Of a DNA stretch of 64,000 nucleotides, positions 10,599 through 62,883 are shown in pieces. Position 1 is the stretch's first letter, and each line of letters starts with the position of its first letter. The stretch is from a virus (lineage: Duplodnaviria; Caudoviricetes). Made by a program: the position numbers and the translations under genes. The DNA lies in the IMG/VR virus record IMGVR_UViG_3300042562_000746, positions 62,251-126,250 of that record, one strand, 5' to 3'. The notes below the pieces were generated by a model. That model was not told where the DNA came from and ran no database searches. It was given only the letters and a program-made list of their open reading frames with translations.

Positions 10599-10656
10599 AA
10601 ATTACCCTCAAAAAAATTTTCGGACTTTTGGTAAAAAGTGAAAAAAGTACATTTTG

Positions 10657-10731
10657 TACCGGTAATAGGATTCGAACCTATAATTGTATGGCTTCTAAGA
10701 CCACTGCGTATGCCAATTCCGCCATACCGGT
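10657..10731 (-). tRNA. tRNA-Leu(TAG), short variable loop
   Basis: Loop CT-TAG-AA; Leu-type D-arm but only a 6-nt variable region. Confidence 0.9.
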
Positions 10732-10738
10732 ATTTATG

Positions 10739-10823
10739 CGGAAAGTGTGAGATTCGAACTCACGGACCTTTAACAGTCGGCAGTTTAGTAAACTGCTGGT
10801 TTCAACCACTCACCCAACTTTCC
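10739..10823 (-). tRNA. tRNA-Ser(ACT)
   Basis: GCAGT-TT-ACT-AA-ACTGC, long variable arm, G discriminator. Confidence 0.9.
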
Positions 10824-10827
10824 TTTG

Positions 10828-10899
10828 GGTGTAAGGACGGTATCGAACCGTCTTATCTAGCTCCACAAACTAGCGCTTCACCTTAAAGCTTCAAACACC
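10828..10899 (-). tRNA. tRNA-His(GTG)
   Basis: Loop TT-GTG-GA, encoded G-1 opposite C73. Confidence 0.9.
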
Positions 10900-10904
10900 A
10901 TTTG

Positions 10905-10974
10905 AGGTTAGTGTTAGAATCGAACTAACTCCGTAAGATTTGCAGTCCCACCGGCCTCCACGACCTAACTAACC
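10905..10974 (-). tRNA. tRNA-Cys(GCA)
   Basis: Loop CT-GCA-AA, U discriminator, short D-loop. Confidence 0.85.
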
Positions 10975-10979
10975 ATTTG

Positions 10980-11052
10980 TAGTTTCAGTAGGATTCGAAC
11001 CTACACTCTAACATCCGTAGTGTTATGTGATAATCCATTTCACTATGAAACT
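10980..11052 (-). tRNA. tRNA-Arg(ACG)
   Basis: Loop CT-ACG-GA. Confidence 0.93.
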
Positions 11053-11057
11053 ATTTG

Positions 11058-11128
11058 CACGCAGTGAAGGAATTGAACCCTCTCCTTTGGTTTTGGAGAC
11101 CAATTGGCTGCCATAGCCTACCACGCGT
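11058..11128 (-). tRNA. tRNA-Trp(CCA)
   Basis: Loop CT-CCA-AA; imperfect acceptor stem. Confidence 0.8.
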
Positions 11129-11131
11129 TTG

Positions 11132-11204
11132 TAGGAATAACAAGATTCGAACTTGTGACATCTAACGTATCAGATTAGCACTCTACCAGCTGAGTTATAT
11201 TCCT
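11132..11204 (-). tRNA. tRNA-Ile(GAT)
   Basis: Loop CT-GAT-AC. Confidence 0.93.
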
Positions 11205-11209
11205 ATATG

Positions 11210-11283
11210 TTGGGAATGCAGGATTCGAACCTACGGCCTCTAGCTCCCAAAGCTAGCGCGATACCGGACTACGCTAATTCCCA
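11210..11283 (-). tRNA. tRNA-Pro(TGG)
   Basis: Loop TT-TGG-GA. Confidence 0.95.
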
Positions 11284-11288
11284 TTTTG

Positions 11289-11360
11289 TTATCGGACCTG
11301 GACTTGAACCAAAACTAATAGAATCAAAATCTATTGTGCTGCCAATTACACCATCCGACA
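11289..11360 (-). tRNA. tRNA-Gln(TTG)
   Basis: Loop TT-TTG-AT, U1-A72 pair. Confidence 0.92.
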
Positions 11361-11440
11361 ATTTCCAATTTTGTTATCACCATTTCCTGGTGTGCTAATA
11401 CACTAAACTTCCAGGCGTGTTCCGGATTGGTAACCGTTTG

Positions 11441-11513
11441 AGCAGATGAGAGGAATCGAACCTCCGTCTCCTACTTGGAAGGAAGGAGTAATGAACCATT
11501 ATACGACATCTGC
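11441..11513 (-). tRNA. tRNA-Gly(TCC)
   Basis: Loop CT-TCC-AA, U discriminator. Confidence 0.93.
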
Positions 11514-11531
11514 ATATCAAATAAACAATTG

Positions 11532-11603
11532 AGGGAAGGGAGAATTACGATATCTCGACCTGATGATTAACAGTCATCTGCTCTGCCGCTGAGCTACCAT
11601 CCC
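11532..11603 (-). tRNA. tRNA-Asn(GTT), atypical T-loop
   Basis: Loop CT-GTT-AA; T-loop ATCGTAA instead of TTCGAAT. Confidence 0.8.
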
Positions 11604-11640
11604 AAAAACAAAAAACCCCAACTAATTAAAGTCAGGGTTT
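11604..11640 (-). terminator. intrinsic terminator (attenuator) immediately upstream of the tRNA block
   Basis: AAACCCTGACT-TTAATT-AGTTGGGGTTT followed by TTTGTTTTT. Confidence 0.8.
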
Positions 11641-11672
11641 TCTAAAATTCTTAATATAAATCTAGCCTAACT

Positions 11673-11741
11673 TTACATATCTCTGCTACCCCAAATCTGA
11701 TTCGGTGTGCTACAAAGTGTATGTAATGTCAATGCTTTCAT
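11673..11741 (-). CDS. putative attenuator leader peptide (22 aa) MKALTLHTLCSTPNQIWGSRDM
   Basis: ATG 6 nt after a TATATTTA element; stop codon lies in the 5' arm of an antiterminator. Confidence 0.65.
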   Translation of the reverse strand: MKALTLHTLCSTPNQIWGSRDM

Positions 11742-11839
11742 TTGTTATAAATATAATCGAATTAAAAAAGTAATCAATCTTCAAAATACGCCACGTCAAG
11801 TCATGCTCCGGTTAATACTAGCCTCGATGAATTACTCTG

Positions 11840-11880
11840 CTATCATTATTGGAATCGAACCAACATTAACCATTATGATA
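11840..11880 (-). ncRNA. tRNA minihelix-like element (no anticodon arm)
   Basis: TATCAT/ATGATA acceptor-like stem plus GTTGG-TTCGATT-CCAAT T-arm, joined by about 9 nt containing TGG. Confidence 0.5.
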
Positions 11881-11887
11881 AAATAAA

Positions 11888-12760
11888 ATAGGGATGAGAA
11901 TACTCCATATTGTGAACCAGCTTTAGAAAGATTATTAGTTCCTTCCGTTTCCACTACCTTTTGAGTAGTACCAATTCAATGTGGATGATTTAAGACTATC
12001 AGTCTTTAAGTTGCCGATTACTCTCTACTTAATCATTTTCTTCAAGCCTCGCAGCCTAATTAATTCTTGCGGAATTAGAAACCTTTCGATAGAATCACAG
12101 ACTTCTTGCGGAAGTATCGTGGCTAAGAACAGCTCTTAACTATGTACACACCTTTCACCTGCAACTGGTAAACACTTAAGCTTAATTTTTAAATTGTAGT
12201 TTTTACACCGAAGTAAAAATTGAGTTTTAGTTTATAGAATTATTCAGGTAGTGGTTTACCACTAGCTCCCCCAACTTTTGGTCGAGAGAATACTAAACTA
12301 CCCGATGCAATATCCCTACTGCGTTATTTTGAGTCATCTTCATTGAGTAGTTTTGGTAAACTAGTTCAAAGGATAGTAACAGCACCACCTGTACACAGTC
12401 TTATCTTACGTCCTTTCGGATGGTTTGATGTTAAGACCACTCTGATAATGAATACCGCAATGATGTAGAGGGATTAAGTCTACATTTCTTACTGATATTC
12501 TATGGGTTATTCTTATTGGTGTTCCCACCTCAATTAGAGTATCTATAATACCCCAATTATTCTGACTGTTCCGATATAGTGTTACCCTTTCGTACAAAGC
12601 CTAAATAATATCCCACTTGCATACTTGAGTTAGTCTCTCCTTACGGGGAAAGTAACCGCAGATGTATCACTTAATACACCCACTTTATCCTTGTTTCCAA
12701 GTTTATTTACCGACCATATGCGGCCGTTATTCACTATGTAAGATAAACTTACTATGTGAA
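11888..12760 (-). ncRNA. large ornate ncRNA, GOLLD-like (boundaries approximate)
   Basis: ~870 nt with no credible ORF, higher GC than flanks, many GNRA-capped hairpins (GAAA, GCAA, GTAA), own promoter, located among tRNAs. Confidence 0.65.
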
Positions 12761-12809
12761 ATATTTTCAATAATGTAAAGAACTTTTTAGGTGTTACCCT
12801 ATTGTTTTA

Positions 12810-12841
12810 TAAATATACGATAATTTTTTCAAAGTACCAAA
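12810..12841 (-). promoter_or_regulatory. Bacteroidota-type sigma promoter for the large ncRNA
   Basis: TTTG-N20-TATATTTA. Confidence 0.65.
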
Positions 12842-12914
12842 TATTTGTAAACTTTTTTTCCTAAGATTGAATACCGAGTATCTTTCATCACCTATAAGTT
12901 CCAATCTTATAAAT

Positions 12915-60400: not shown

Positions 60401-62883
60401 GCTATCGAAGCACTTAAAGCGGTTTCAGAAGCTACACTTGCAGAGAATGAAGTTGCAAATGCTCCACTTACTGAACTTACACTTGCACTTACATTTGTAA
60501 TTTCTGCTACACTTGCACTAAATCTACTATCTACTGATTGAGAATATAAAGTTACATTTCCAATACCAGTTATAGTTGATGCACTTAATTCAGCTGATAT
60601 AGTTACTGATGTATCAATTGTAACACCATTAGTTGCATCAATAGTAATAGTTTGTGCACCATCATCAATTTTTAGATAGTTGGTATCATCACCAAAGAAA
60701 CTATATGATGCATTACCTTTAATATGAATATCAGAAGGGGCTGTGTTATATATTTCAACTTTTCTTGCATCATTAACATCTGGTTGTAAAAATATACTTC
60801 CAGTACCTTTAATTTCATTAGTTACGATTAAAGAAGAACTTATTATTTGCTCACCTTTAAATGTATTTGAACCGGTTGTTGCATATGAACCAGTCAATGC
60901 TTCTAAACCAGAAACTCTACTTCCTAATGAACCACCTGTACCGATAGAAGATTCTATTGATGCAACTCTACTATTTACTGATGTAGAATATGCCGTTACA
61001 TTACCGATACCTGCTATTGTTGAAGAACTAATTTCACCACTTACATCTAAATCACCAGTTACGATAATTGTAGATGCACTTTGTTCCATTATAGAATCAC
61101 CAATATGGTCATCACCGGTTGCCACAGGTATTCTACCACTTGTTAATCCAACTTCTTCTCCTAATGAACCCGTATTTTTAGGACCAGCAATTAACATTGC
61201 GGAGTTATAAGGTGCTCCACTATCTGCCGGATGCTCATATAACCAATGATTGTTTATTGAATCCCACCATAAAGAACCTGTTCCTGCATTTGAACCACTA
61301 TCTATTACCGAAATACCACCGAATCTAACTGCAGGTGATGCGGTATTTAATACTATTGTATTTGTACCAATTGATACTGCACTTGCGGTTACATTCAATA
61401 AAGATGAAGAACCATATATAGTTACATCACCTGTTACAGATAACGAACCACTAATAATTTGGTTTGCTTTGAATGTATTTGAACCAGTTGTTGCATATGT
61501 AGTTTCAATTACACCTAATCTATCTGATTGTGCATTATCTGTTAATGCTATTGAAGCACTTAATGCTACTCTTGCTGCCGCTGATGCTGAAAAATCCGTT
61601 GCAACACTACTACTAAATGTACCACCTACTGATGCTACACTTGCAGATAATGCTGCGATTTCTGCGTTACTTGCAGATGTTGATGTTGCAAACGCACCAC
61701 TAATTGCAGTTACATTTGCTGCACTTGCTGAGAATGAAGTTGCAACAGATGAACTTACTGAACTTAATTGAGATGCTGCATATGCTGCACTTGCTGAATC
61801 CGTTGTTGCAATTGAAGCACTTAATGAAGTTACACTTGCTGCACTTGCACTAAATGAAGTTGCTACTGCACCACTTACTGAATTTAATTGTGAAGCTGCA
61901 TATGCTGCACTTGCACTATCAGTTGTTGCTATTGAAGAACTTAAATTTGTTATTGTTGTTGCTACCGCACCACTTAAAGCAGTTTGAGAAGCGGCACTTG
62001 CTGAGAAAGAAGTTGCTACTGATGAACTAAAGTCACCAGTTACACTTGCTACTGAAGCACTTAATGCTGAAATTTGATATGCTGATGCTGAATCAGTTGT
62101 TGCAATTGAAGAACTTAAATTTGTTATTGTTGTTGCTATCGCTCCACTTAATGCGGTTTGAGAAGCTACACTTGCAGAATCAGTTGTTGCTATTGAAGAA
62201 CTTAAAGCTGTTTGAGAAGCTGCACTTGCACTAAATGAAGTTGCTACCGCACCACTTAAAGCAGTTTGAGAAGCTGCACTTGCAGAATCAGTTGTTGCAA
62301 TTGAAGAACTTAAATTTGTTATTGTTGTTGCAATTGCACCACTTAATGCAGTTTGAGAAGCTGCACTTGCACTATCAGTTGTTGCTATTGAAGCACTTAA
62401 TCCGGCAAAACCAAATACTGATTGTGAGAATGCATTTAGATTTGCGGTACTTGCACTAAATGAGGTTGCAACCGAAGAACTAAAATCACCAGTTACACTC
62501 GCGATACTTGCTGCACTTGCACTAAATGAAGTAGCTACTGAAGCACTAAATGTACCAATGTTACCTGTTAAGTCTGGAGTTGTATTACCATCTGCACCTA
62601 ATAAGAATAAAGTGTTACTACTACTTGCATAGAAAGGAACACCATCCATTAGATTTCCGTAAGATGAAGCAGAGAATATAGGAGCTGTTGCACCTTGTAG
62701 TACTCTGTTTGCAGCTACTACTGAACCACTTTCTACTGCCGCAAATACTATACCTTGTCCGTTAGTTACGCCTGTTAATTTACTTGAACCGGTAGCTATT
62801 AAAATCTCACCTTTTTGAAGTGAGCCGGTTGCTGAAGATAGTCTGTCTAAACTACCACGTCTATTCTTAATGATTTGTGCCAT
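57415..62883 (-). CDS. giant Ser/Ala-rich repetitive fibre protein (1822 aa)
   Basis: N-terminal RRGSL...LQKGE; many SAS heptad-like repeats; ends IDGGSF. Confidence 0.85.
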   Translation of the reverse strand: MAQIIKNRRGSLDRLSSATGSLQKGEILIATGSSKLTGVTNGQGIVFAAVESGSVVAANRVLQGATAPIFSASSYGNLMDGVPFYASSSNTLFLLGADGNTTPDLTGNIGTFSASVATSFSASAASIASVTGDFSSSVATSFSASTANLNAFSQSVFGFAGLSASIATTDSASAASQTALSGAIATTITNLSSSIATTDSASAASQTALSGAVATSFSASAASQTALSSSIATTDSASVASQTALSGAIATTITNLSSSIATTDSASAYQISALSASVASVTGDFSSSVATSFSASAASQTALSGAVATTITNLSSSIATTDSASAAYAASQLNSVSGAVATSFSASAASVTSLSASIATTDSASAAYAASQLSSVSSSVATSFSASAANVTAISGAFATSTSASNAEIAALSASVASVGGTFSSSVATDFSASAAARVALSASIALTDNAQSDRLGVIETTYATTGSNTFKANQIISGSLSVTGDVTIYGSSSLLNVTASAVSIGTNTIVLNTASPAVRFGGISVIDSGSNAGTGSLWWDSINNHWLYEHPADSGAPYNSAMLIAGPKNTGSLGEEVGLTSGRIPVATGDDHIGDSIMEQSASTIIVTGDLDVSGEISSSTIAGIGNVTAYSTSVNSRVASIESSIGTGGSLGSRVSGLEALTGSYATTGSNTFKGEQIISSSLIVTNEIKGTGSIFLQPDVNDARKVEIYNTAPSDIHIKGNASYSFFGDDTNYLKIDDGAQTITIDATNGVTIDTSVTISAELSASTITGIGNVTLYSQSVDSRFSASVAEITNVSASVSSVSGAFATSFSASVASETALSASIATTDSASAAYAASQLSSVSGAVATSFSASAASIALVSASLSSVSGAFATSTSASNFEITSLSASVASVGGTFSSSVATDFSSSTAARVALSASIYQTDATQSVNIQSLTSKTGSYATTGSNTFNGDQVLTGSFDMTGTANFNNAVAVNDSNMNLGNSSSLNLTGGSSIYVGGVGTISGSIVGIGNVSLYSASVNSRFSASAYDISVLSASVASVGGTFSSSVATDFSASTAARVALSASIASDVNTLSSSIYQTDATQSNSITNNSSSFATSLSASAASQTSLSASLATTDSASVALITSVSASVTSISGAFATSTSASNYQITELSASVASVGGTFSSSVATDFSSSTAARVALSASVSGTINTLSTSVDSRLRSEEFKSTTFATTGSNGFVGTQNITGDVVVTGSVYIQFGQDLVTNHISGNQGRIELGNIDNNISIIADNELMLTATGSGVHVHNANFSVSPSGLNNNVLVVSASQTTITNELSASNISGVGNIGAFSQSVDSRFSSSVYEVTQLSASVASVGGTFSSSVATDFSASTAARVALSASIATDFSASVASQTALSGAVASTITNVSSSLATTDSASAFTTATNLSVVSGAVATSFSASAANVTSISSSFSSSLSAVSASLASNGNTQTGRIDALETYSSSLKTAIELTGSSVTIQGDLLVRGTTTSVNSTTIELGDNIIELNGTGATNGGLYIKDVTAPNTATGSLLWDSTNDYWKAGTKNSESKVLLAIGDSVVSGGAQIAIADLDGYADYNDAIYTDINAASASAWGAFQSASSFSQSFATSTSASNYQITELSASVASVGGTFSQSVATDFSASNAARVALSASIASTDSTQTTNITEASASAWGAFQSASSFSSSFATSLSASVASQTIFSSSVATSISASAANVTSISGAFATSTSASNANITALSASVASVTGDFSSSVATSFSASAYVVSALSASIYLTDATQSTDITNNSSSFATSISASNYRITTLETTIDGGSF

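Follow-up and report, generated by a model that had tools for sequence, protein, structure and literature searches.

A putative ribosome-dependent transcription attenuator ahead of a tRNA gene array in lake phages

The DNA examined here (the window) is a 64,000-nucleotide (nt) stretch of a tailed phage (Caudoviricetes), corresponding to positions 62,251 to 126,250 of the 126-kb IMG/VR virus record IMGVR_UViG_3300042562_000746, whose estimated completeness is 65%. Its minus strand carries 18 tRNA genes at 11603-9062, the first of which is a tRNA-Asn gene that starts at 11603. On their 5′ side lie a tRNA-Met gene, a transfer-messenger RNA (tmRNA; 13499-13126), and a GOLLD RNA (Rfam RF02032; match at 12305-11891, 283 bits, E = 8e-81). 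The element of interest, a candidate leader-peptide transcription attenuator, lies within the spacer of 287 nt that separates GOLLD from tRNA-Asn, with all its features on the same minus strand (Table 1). An earlier note, made from the letters of the window, had drawn attention to a TATATTTA box, a 22-codon open reading frame (ORF), and a hairpin with a U-tail that abuts tRNA-Asn, and had read the ensemble as an attenuator. Each of these features lies where the note had placed it, except that the predicted terminator hairpin (11644-11609; U-tail to 11604) has 12-15 pairs (15 as called, with the A:U base included) rather than the 11 bp first given. The pairing between UAAAGUUAGG and the terminator 5′ arm plus loop (CCUGACUUUA), also described in that note, is present as well: TAAAGTTAGG (11675-11666) and CCTGACTTTA (11636-11627) form 10 bp, including one G.U pair, with an energy of -11.4 kcal/mol.

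Table 1. Window coordinates of the candidate attenuator and of the tRNA genes that it may control
Feature	Coordinates	Strand	Details
Promoter-like element	11748..11777	-	Box TATATTTA at 11755-11748; weak TTGATT at 11777-11772
Leader ORF, 22 codons plus TAA stop, peptide MKALTLHTLCSTPNQIWGSRDM	11673..11741	-	ORF list; homologous frames in relatives
Segment 1, AGCAUUGAC, codons 2-5	11728..11736	-	Minimum free energy structures; predicted partner is segment 2 if no ribosome covers it
Apical hairpin within the ORF, Pro codon CCG(AAU) with Trp codon (AUU)UGG	11691..11705	-	Fold and changes in relatives
Segment 2, antiterminator 5′ strand, stop codon plus next 9 nt, UAAAGUUAGGCU	11664..11675	-	Alternative partners: segment 1 or segment 3
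Segment 3, terminator 5′ arm (11643-11630) plus first loop bases	11627..11643	-	CCUGACUUUA (11636-11627) pairs with segment 2
Segment 4, terminator 3′ arm (AGUUGGGGUUUU...) plus U-tail	11604..11623	-	Ends one base before tRNA-Asn
Putative target, first tRNA sub-array: Asn, Gly, Gln, Pro, Ile, Trp, Arg, Cys, His, Ser, Leu	10656..11603	-	No room for a promoter between U-tail and tRNA-Asn

The 140-nt leader folds with a minimum free energy of -41.9 kcal/mol (z = -6.5), and none of 200 shuffles folded as well. In this structure, the leader ORF is a long hairpin in which codons 2-5 (AGC-UUGAC) pair with GUUAG-GCU just past the stop codon, with further pairings of UUACAUA with UAUGUAA, CUUUGU with GCAGAG, and the Pro codon CCG with the Trp codon UGG. 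The strand at codons 2-5, segment 1, is an element that the earlier note had missed; according to the folding models, it would hold segment 2 when nothing intervenes, the window 1:2 duplex being worth -13.0 kcal/mol. Since segment 1 is thus predicted to sequester the antiterminator strand, the leader would have the full 1:2 / 2:3 / 3:4 layout of trp-type attenuators. All three duplexes are available to each of the 31 unique modules assembled from the window and its relatives, at -6 to -14 kcal/mol for 1:2, -10 to -19 kcal/mol for 2:3, and -14 to -22 kcal/mol for 3:4.

To each helix we assigned the share of cells paired on alignment A4 and a covariation score set against 500 shuffles, with partners slid by 1-3 columns as the control. 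Helix 3:4 was paired in 97% of cells, and its covariation score was reached by 0/500 shuffles. The corresponding values were 88% and 59/500 for helix 2:3, and 91% and 154/500 for helix 1:2. Sliding the partners lowered the paired share to 21-73%. The clearest compensation is found in two lineages (L010 and L033), in which segments 1 and 3 have U instead of the C of the other modules and segment 2 has A instead of G; segment 4 keeps its G. We also moved a 29-nt ribosome footprint along the nascent RNA of the window as a mask. With the A site at any of codons 1-19, the antiterminator formed (7 of 8 core nt), and with the A site at any position from codon 20 to the stop codon, it did not (0-5 nt); without a ribosome, 1:2 formed. 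In this model, a ribosome at the end of the ORF would hide the antiterminator and one held upstream would leave it free, as the earlier note had proposed.

Relatives of the locus were seeded from the neighboring ATPase gene, which yielded 19 viral loci. The gene order is kept among them (ATPase, tmRNA, tRNA-Met, GOLLD, spacer, and tRNA array), and GOLLD was detected in 14 of the 15 loci scanned, the exception having too little flank. A homologous ORF occurs in all 13 spacers of this first set, the window's own counted, and encodes 22 amino acids (aa) in the window group, 42 aa in L010, 31 aa in L012, and 47 aa in the L013 group. Querying 1.84 billion representatives with the 47-aa form by phmmer returned eight matches, five of which are products of such ORFs; four of these are 43-47 aa long, and the fifth is a 95-aa call extended at its N terminus. 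Matches P0005, P0007, and P0008 are long repeat proteins that were treated as spurious; P0007, the only one inspected, is full of H/C-rich repeats, which we take to be zinc fingers. Scans of viral and metagenome sequence with the peptide alignment added further loci, and the M[KM]xxxLHT frame is now found in 49 loci representing 36 unique sequences. A scan of 185,579 species genomes retrieved no relative. When 11400-12900 was compared by blastn with 50,697 phage records, tRNA-Asn was the sole match (46 records, ∼5% of the query) and no cultured close relative emerged, and tblastn of the ATPase returned only matches of <60% identity, in jumbo phages of Pseudomonas, Xanthomonas, and others.

The terminator core, CCC(C)UNAC...GUUNGGG(G) followed by at least five U residues, is present in 33/33 modules that are complete and have at least 90 nt of downstream sequence. 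The distance from the U-tail to the start of the first tRNA is -3 to 14 nt in 28 of the 31 unique modules; two of the other three have an uncalled Asn-like tRNA at that place, and one has an insertion. The latter (L043, 1209-1628) carries ∼420 nt between the U-tail and tRNA-Asn and is the sole module of the 31 in which the terminator does not adjoin a tRNA. Every relative with enough flank thus shows the arrangement that the earlier note had expected to be conserved, namely, a short ORF and a terminator before a tRNA array. As there is no room for a promoter at the junction between the U-tail and the tRNA, the array would be reachable only through the terminator and would depend on read-through. 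This missing promoter is, in our view, the strongest argument from the sequence that the stop is probably regulated rather than final.

The ORF varies in length among relatives (22, 31, 40, 42-44, 47, 48, or 53 codons), with its frame kept in all of them. Where segment 2 lies within the ORF, its anchor falls at nt 75, 105, 123, or 138, as well as at 132 in L050 by hand count, all of which are 0 mod 3, and it is always read as xxG-UUA-GGG. In these long forms, segment 2 lies 5-12 codons before the stop. The 22- and 31-codon forms indicate that the C-terminal part of the peptide is dispensable. Segment 2 lies past the stop codon in two independent cases, the window group and L056, as UAAAGUUAGG in both, and this retention where it is noncoding argues that it is kept as RNA, not as peptide. 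At the other end of the leader, the YUR-AC motif of segment 1 shifts frame among lineages and is read as L-N or L-T. The invariant residues are M1, L6, H7, T8, and W. Covariation is seen in the apical Pro...Trp hairpin: among 18 sequences, double-sided changes affect its three inner pairs in 5, 5, and 3 cases. This hairpin is also the only structure that RNAalifold returned for the first 80 nt; the ACAUAC:GURUGU helix pairs in several registers, without covariation. Collectively, these patterns suggest that the leader sequence is under both constraints, coding frame and RNA structure, and that the ORF is probably translated. A Shine-Dalgarno motif precedes 9 of the 44 phage genes of the window, and their upstream regions are A-rich, as is that of the leader.

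The peptide composition of the leader was compared with the tRNA set of the phage. It covers 14 of the 15 amino acids backed by a phage tRNA. Of 17,128 windows taken from proteins of the phage, only 2 reach this coverage, as do 0.3% of the stop-free shuffles generated from the leader nucleotides. All the rare residues W, C, H, and M are present, and the common residues E, F, V, and Y are missing; F, V, and Y have no phage tRNA, and E has one. K and A occupy positions 2-3. At the codon level, with strict wobble rules, phage tRNAs can read 18 of the 22 codons, where the background share is 0.56 (P = 0.011). The observation that the leader holds all 11 amino acids of the next 11 tRNAs and lacks E, F, V, and Y was reproduced; only 1 of 17,021 22-residue windows of phage proteins contains those 11. 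The earlier note had linked the omission of Glu to the separate promoter of its tRNA. Glu is indeed missing, but the tRNAs for T, D, and M also sit behind the next promoter, and these residues are nevertheless in the leader, which therefore matches the whole tRNA set and not the first sub-array alone. A match specific to the first 11 tRNAs was rejected on these grounds and because it is weak at the codon level (10/22, P = 0.06).

Two relatives add to this picture. L008 has acquired tRNA-Tyr as the first gene of its array, and its leader reads TAT GGC where that of the window reads GGT AGC, with little else different; the swap adds Y while keeping G and S. The resulting coverage (16/17) was reached by 0 of 17,128 protein windows and by 0.02% of shuffles. 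In L056, coverage is complete (16/16), as in 9 of 16,741 protein windows and 0.2% of shuffles. Of the 23 distinct leaders, 16 fit the full set of 20 amino acids into 40-53 residues, and these long forms are therefore uninformative for tRNA tracking. Such diversity is unusual, occurring in 0.25-1.6% of protein windows and 0.3-3.5% of stop-free shuffles (19 of 23 rows computed). Cys is found at different positions in different lineages.

We favor the reading that the leader is a ribosome-dependent (leader-peptide) transcription attenuator gating the first tRNA sub-array, the conservation of its parts among relatives supporting what the earlier note had proposed from one sequence. The phage would then probably make the tRNAs of the array only when ribosomes decode slowly. 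Transcription would start at or upstream of the TATATTTA box. With no ribosome on the leader, 1:2 would form, followed by 3:4, and the polymerase would stop at 11604. A fast ribosome that has reached codons 20-23 would mask segment 2, again allowing 3:4 and termination. A ribosome that is still on codons 1-19 as segment 3 emerges would cover segment 1 and leave segment 2 free, so that 2:3 would form first; the terminator could then not fold, and the polymerase would enter tRNA-Asn and the following tRNAs. Termination at the hairpin, kinetic coupling, and read-through driven by stalling are the steps that we infer here. Since one or a few codons are devoted to each of 14 of the 15 tRNA-backed amino acids, the leader would be a broad gauge of decoding speed: a shortage of any of many charged tRNAs would raise transcription of the array and plenty would turn it off, as in a negative feedback. 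That the leader broadly gauges tRNA supply is plausible and has statistical support in the coverage figures given above. The shortage itself might stem from codon-usage mismatch, host shut-off, or tRNA-cleaving defenses; that anticodon nucleases are the trigger is speculation.

Several observations weigh against this attenuator. Compensatory covariation is thin for 1:2 and 2:3, with two double-change pairs each, and these two helices appear to rest mainly on conserved complementarity; the change shared by L010 and L033 may be a single evolutionary event. The antiterminator announced in the earlier note is borne out in relatives as complementarity, in all 31 unique modules, two independently shortened forms included, but its covariation is weak. 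At equilibrium, the terminator always wins in the full-length RNA, and the switch must therefore be kinetic, as in trp. The leader has no tandem runs of regulatory codons in the style of trp or his. The invariant residues L-H-T, P, and W all lie within base-paired RNA, so conservation of the peptide and conservation of the RNA are inseparable there. Promoter-like sites are not beyond chance (15 in the region versus 20 +/- 3.9 in shuffles), and the putative leader promoter is a consensus-like match only. As to composition, the tracking of the tRNA set suggested in the earlier note is far beyond chance in the window, L008, and L056, but L012 has none (14/17; P = 0.14 and 0.18). Long leaders also hold amino acids without a phage tRNA (e.g., F, I, and K in L010). 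Set against stop-free random ORFs, their diversity is unusual at no better than 0.3-5% per lineage. As the lineages share ancestry, the composition P values are not independent, and Fisher's combined P, which assumes that they are, carries no weight in our reading.

A bolder version of the gauge is possible, and we advance it with less than even confidence. The leader may be a near-pangram test message, selected to hold one codon for nearly every amino acid for which the phage can supply a tRNA, that works as a general gauge of decoding speed feeding back on tRNA supply and also as a counter-defense sensor of depleted or cleaved host tRNAs. The alternative that fares best keeps the same attenuator and has the stall programmed by the nascent peptide, M-K-x-L-x-L-H-T...P...W, in the manner of tnaC, secM, or ermCL, so that the trigger would be a particular cue, such as a small molecule, a host factor, or ribosome rescue by the phage tmRNA, instead of general tRNA supply. 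M1, L6, H7, T8, and W are invariant and in order in peptides whose identity is otherwise 36-65%, nothing but the N-terminal 19 residues is shared by all forms, and the phage's own tmRNA is 1.4 kb upstream, all of which would suit an arrest peptide. The invariant codons are, however, also paired RNA, which accounts for their conservation without any role of the peptide; the 14/15 coverage of tRNA-backed amino acids and the retention of Cys, Tyr, Phe, and Glu at shifting positions are left unexplained, and none of the tools used matched a known arrest motif. We therefore regard a programmed arrest as unlikely.

It is more doubtful still that the ORF is a small phage gene of the ordinary kind that ends in an intrinsic terminator of its own, the array being served by constitutive leaky read-through and the complementarities being incidental. 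Public gene callers have predicted such short ORFs as proteins (the five phmmer matches among eight), and the terminator is a canonical hairpin with a U-run. Against a gene of this kind stand the dispensable C-terminal half (22- and 31-codon forms), the conservation of segment 2 where it is noncoding (the window group and L056), the complementarity of segment 2 to both segments 1 and 3 in 31/31 modules, and the lack of any relative in the 185,579 species genomes; moreover, with no promoter room before the tRNAs, a strong unregulated stop ahead of 11 tRNA genes would be self-defeating. Equally improbable is a ribosome-independent RNA switch or processive antitermination (a protein- or RNA-binding element, or a put-like polymerase modifier) with the frame as a by-product of structure: the strong folding (z = -3.8 to -6.5), the covarying apical hairpin, and the change of frame of the YUR-AC motif (L-N / L-T), where RNA constraint dominates, would fit it, but the frame is open from the conserved ATG-AAA to segment 2 or beyond in all length variants, a composition matched to the tRNA set would be pointless in untranslated RNA, and no Rfam family, T-box included, was found in 11604-11890 at E <= 1.

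Leader-peptide transcription attenuators are known from amino acid operons, as exemplified by trpL, hisL, leuL, and pheL. The phage leader resembles the trpL type in its short ORF, the mutually exclusive 1:2 / 2:3 / 3:4 pairings, the terminator just before the genes, and the predicted default termination when translation does not occur. It differs in that tRNA genes of a phage, not biosynthetic enzymes, would be controlled; in having one or a few codons for each of 16 amino acids instead of a tandem codon run; and in that segment 1 begins at codon 2 and the 5′ untranslated region is probably very short. Attenuators that sense several amino acids through one leader are the multivalent ilvGMEDA (Ile/Leu/Val) and thr (Thr/Ile) systems. 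These respond to two or three related amino acids through clustered codons, whereas the leader described here contains 14 of the 15 tRNA-backed amino acids, and its long relatives contain all 20. Escherichia coli pheST, which has an attenuator with the pheM leader, is a case of leader-peptide attenuation of a gene of the translation apparatus; it differs in controlling a synthetase, in sensing one amino acid, and in being cellular. T-box elements are terminator/antiterminator leaders that, as would be the case here, answer tRNA charging. They bind the tRNA directly and have no ORF; the phage leader has one, and its region gave no T-box match.

Among the literature consulted, the nearest functional analogue appears to be the trn operon of Anabaena, a long tRNA array that is induced by translational stress (PMC8421152, PMC10272220). 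Its control is exerted through promoter repeats bound by the repressor TrcR (PMC8421152, PMC10272220). A supernumerary tRNA array that is off until translation is impaired would be common to both cases. The Anabaena array differs in relying on a promoter-bound repressor, and a count of "attenuat," "leader peptide," and "terminator" in PMC8421152 gave 0 for each. In full-text literature searches, no paper turned up that describes tRNA genes or arrays as targets of leader-peptide attenuation.

Both the reason for which phages carry tRNA genes and the timing of their expression are open questions. If the attenuator operates as we propose, the phage would measure the decoding capacity of the cell and top it up on demand, and such a gauge would fit both the codon-usage and the anti-defense explanations of phage tRNAs. 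Leader-peptide attenuation would then gain RNA genes as targets besides enzyme operons, nearly the full set of amino acids as signals in place of one to three, and viruses as carriers besides cells. The element is ∼140 nt long, self-contained, and conserved in many lake phages, and might serve as a sensor of translation stress; being short and self-contained, it is directly testable in a reporter.

The TATATTTA box lies 6 nt from the leader ATG in the window and 6-7 nt from it in L010, L012, and L031; this short distance suggests a very short or absent 5′ untranslated region. A generic promoter scan reads the leader site as TTGATT-N16-TATATT. Three other minus-strand sites of the window, at ∼12840, 10597, and 9620, share the composite TTTGGTA-N20-TATATTTA and precede GOLLD, tRNA-Glu, and small ORFs downstream of tRNA-Met (9711-9637; site at ∼9620), respectively. 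The leader site has the same -7/-10 box as these stronger sites and a poor upstream element. The composite resembles the Bacteroidota promoter (-33 TTTG / -7 TAnnTTTG).

Metatranscriptome contigs from four lake runs of three studies covered the GOLLD region (11895-12752) deeply in all four runs, with summed depths of ∼10^2 to 10^4. Adapter-bearing contigs from two runs stop at 11895 and 11903, immediately ahead of a minihelix that resembles a tRNA, and these ends look like a defined GOLLD 3′ end. The leader region (11604-11755) has next to no contig cover and is uninformative on termination or read-through. One contig (X18; 11530-11721, depth 3, one run) bridges the ORF, the terminator, and tRNA-Asn, but it may be DNA carry-over or come from a relative, and we infer no read-through from it. 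The minihelix (∼11878-11838, minus strand) follows GOLLD immediately and consists of an acceptor stem and a GGTTCGATTCC T-arm without an anticodon arm; it might direct processing of the GOLLD 3′ end. At the same site, several relatives (e.g., L014, 18022-18093, and L017, 17747-17896) have one or two full tRNA-like genes, one of them Gly-TCC and another called by ARAGORN with a two-base anticodon. The leader is not part of GOLLD, since the Rfam match stops at 11891, the adapter-bearing contigs stop at 11895 and 11903, and the leader ORF starts ∼150 nt downstream of the end of that match; in the Rfam 15 search of the spacer, the nearest families were GOLLD (11891-12305) and tRNA-Asn. Between the minihelix and the leader promoter lies a block of ∼80 nt (11756-11838, minus strand) that is near-identical in the window group, L010, and L012 (in the latter, after a 300-nt insertion), partial in L033, and absent from the L013 group.

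A second ORF followed by a terminator (9897-9767, minus strand), ahead of tRNA-Met, was considered as a similar attenuator and rejected because the ORF is not conserved. Its hairpin and U-run (9794-9767, minus strand) overlap the stop codon of the 36-aa ORF, 56 nt before tRNA-Met. The hairpin is kept in L002, L007, and L011, and the ORF is absent from L007 and has 19 aa in L011. The phage tmRNA (13126-13499, minus strand) encodes a 23-residue tag ending in AVAA; it is kept beside tRNA-Met in relatives, with a tag that varies by lineage. Finally, the tRNA-Ser gene at 10738-10823 (minus strand) has the anticodon ACT (A34), which is kept in the window group, L008, L010, and L012; in the more distant relatives L027, L031, L033, L055, and L056, the anticodon is GCT.

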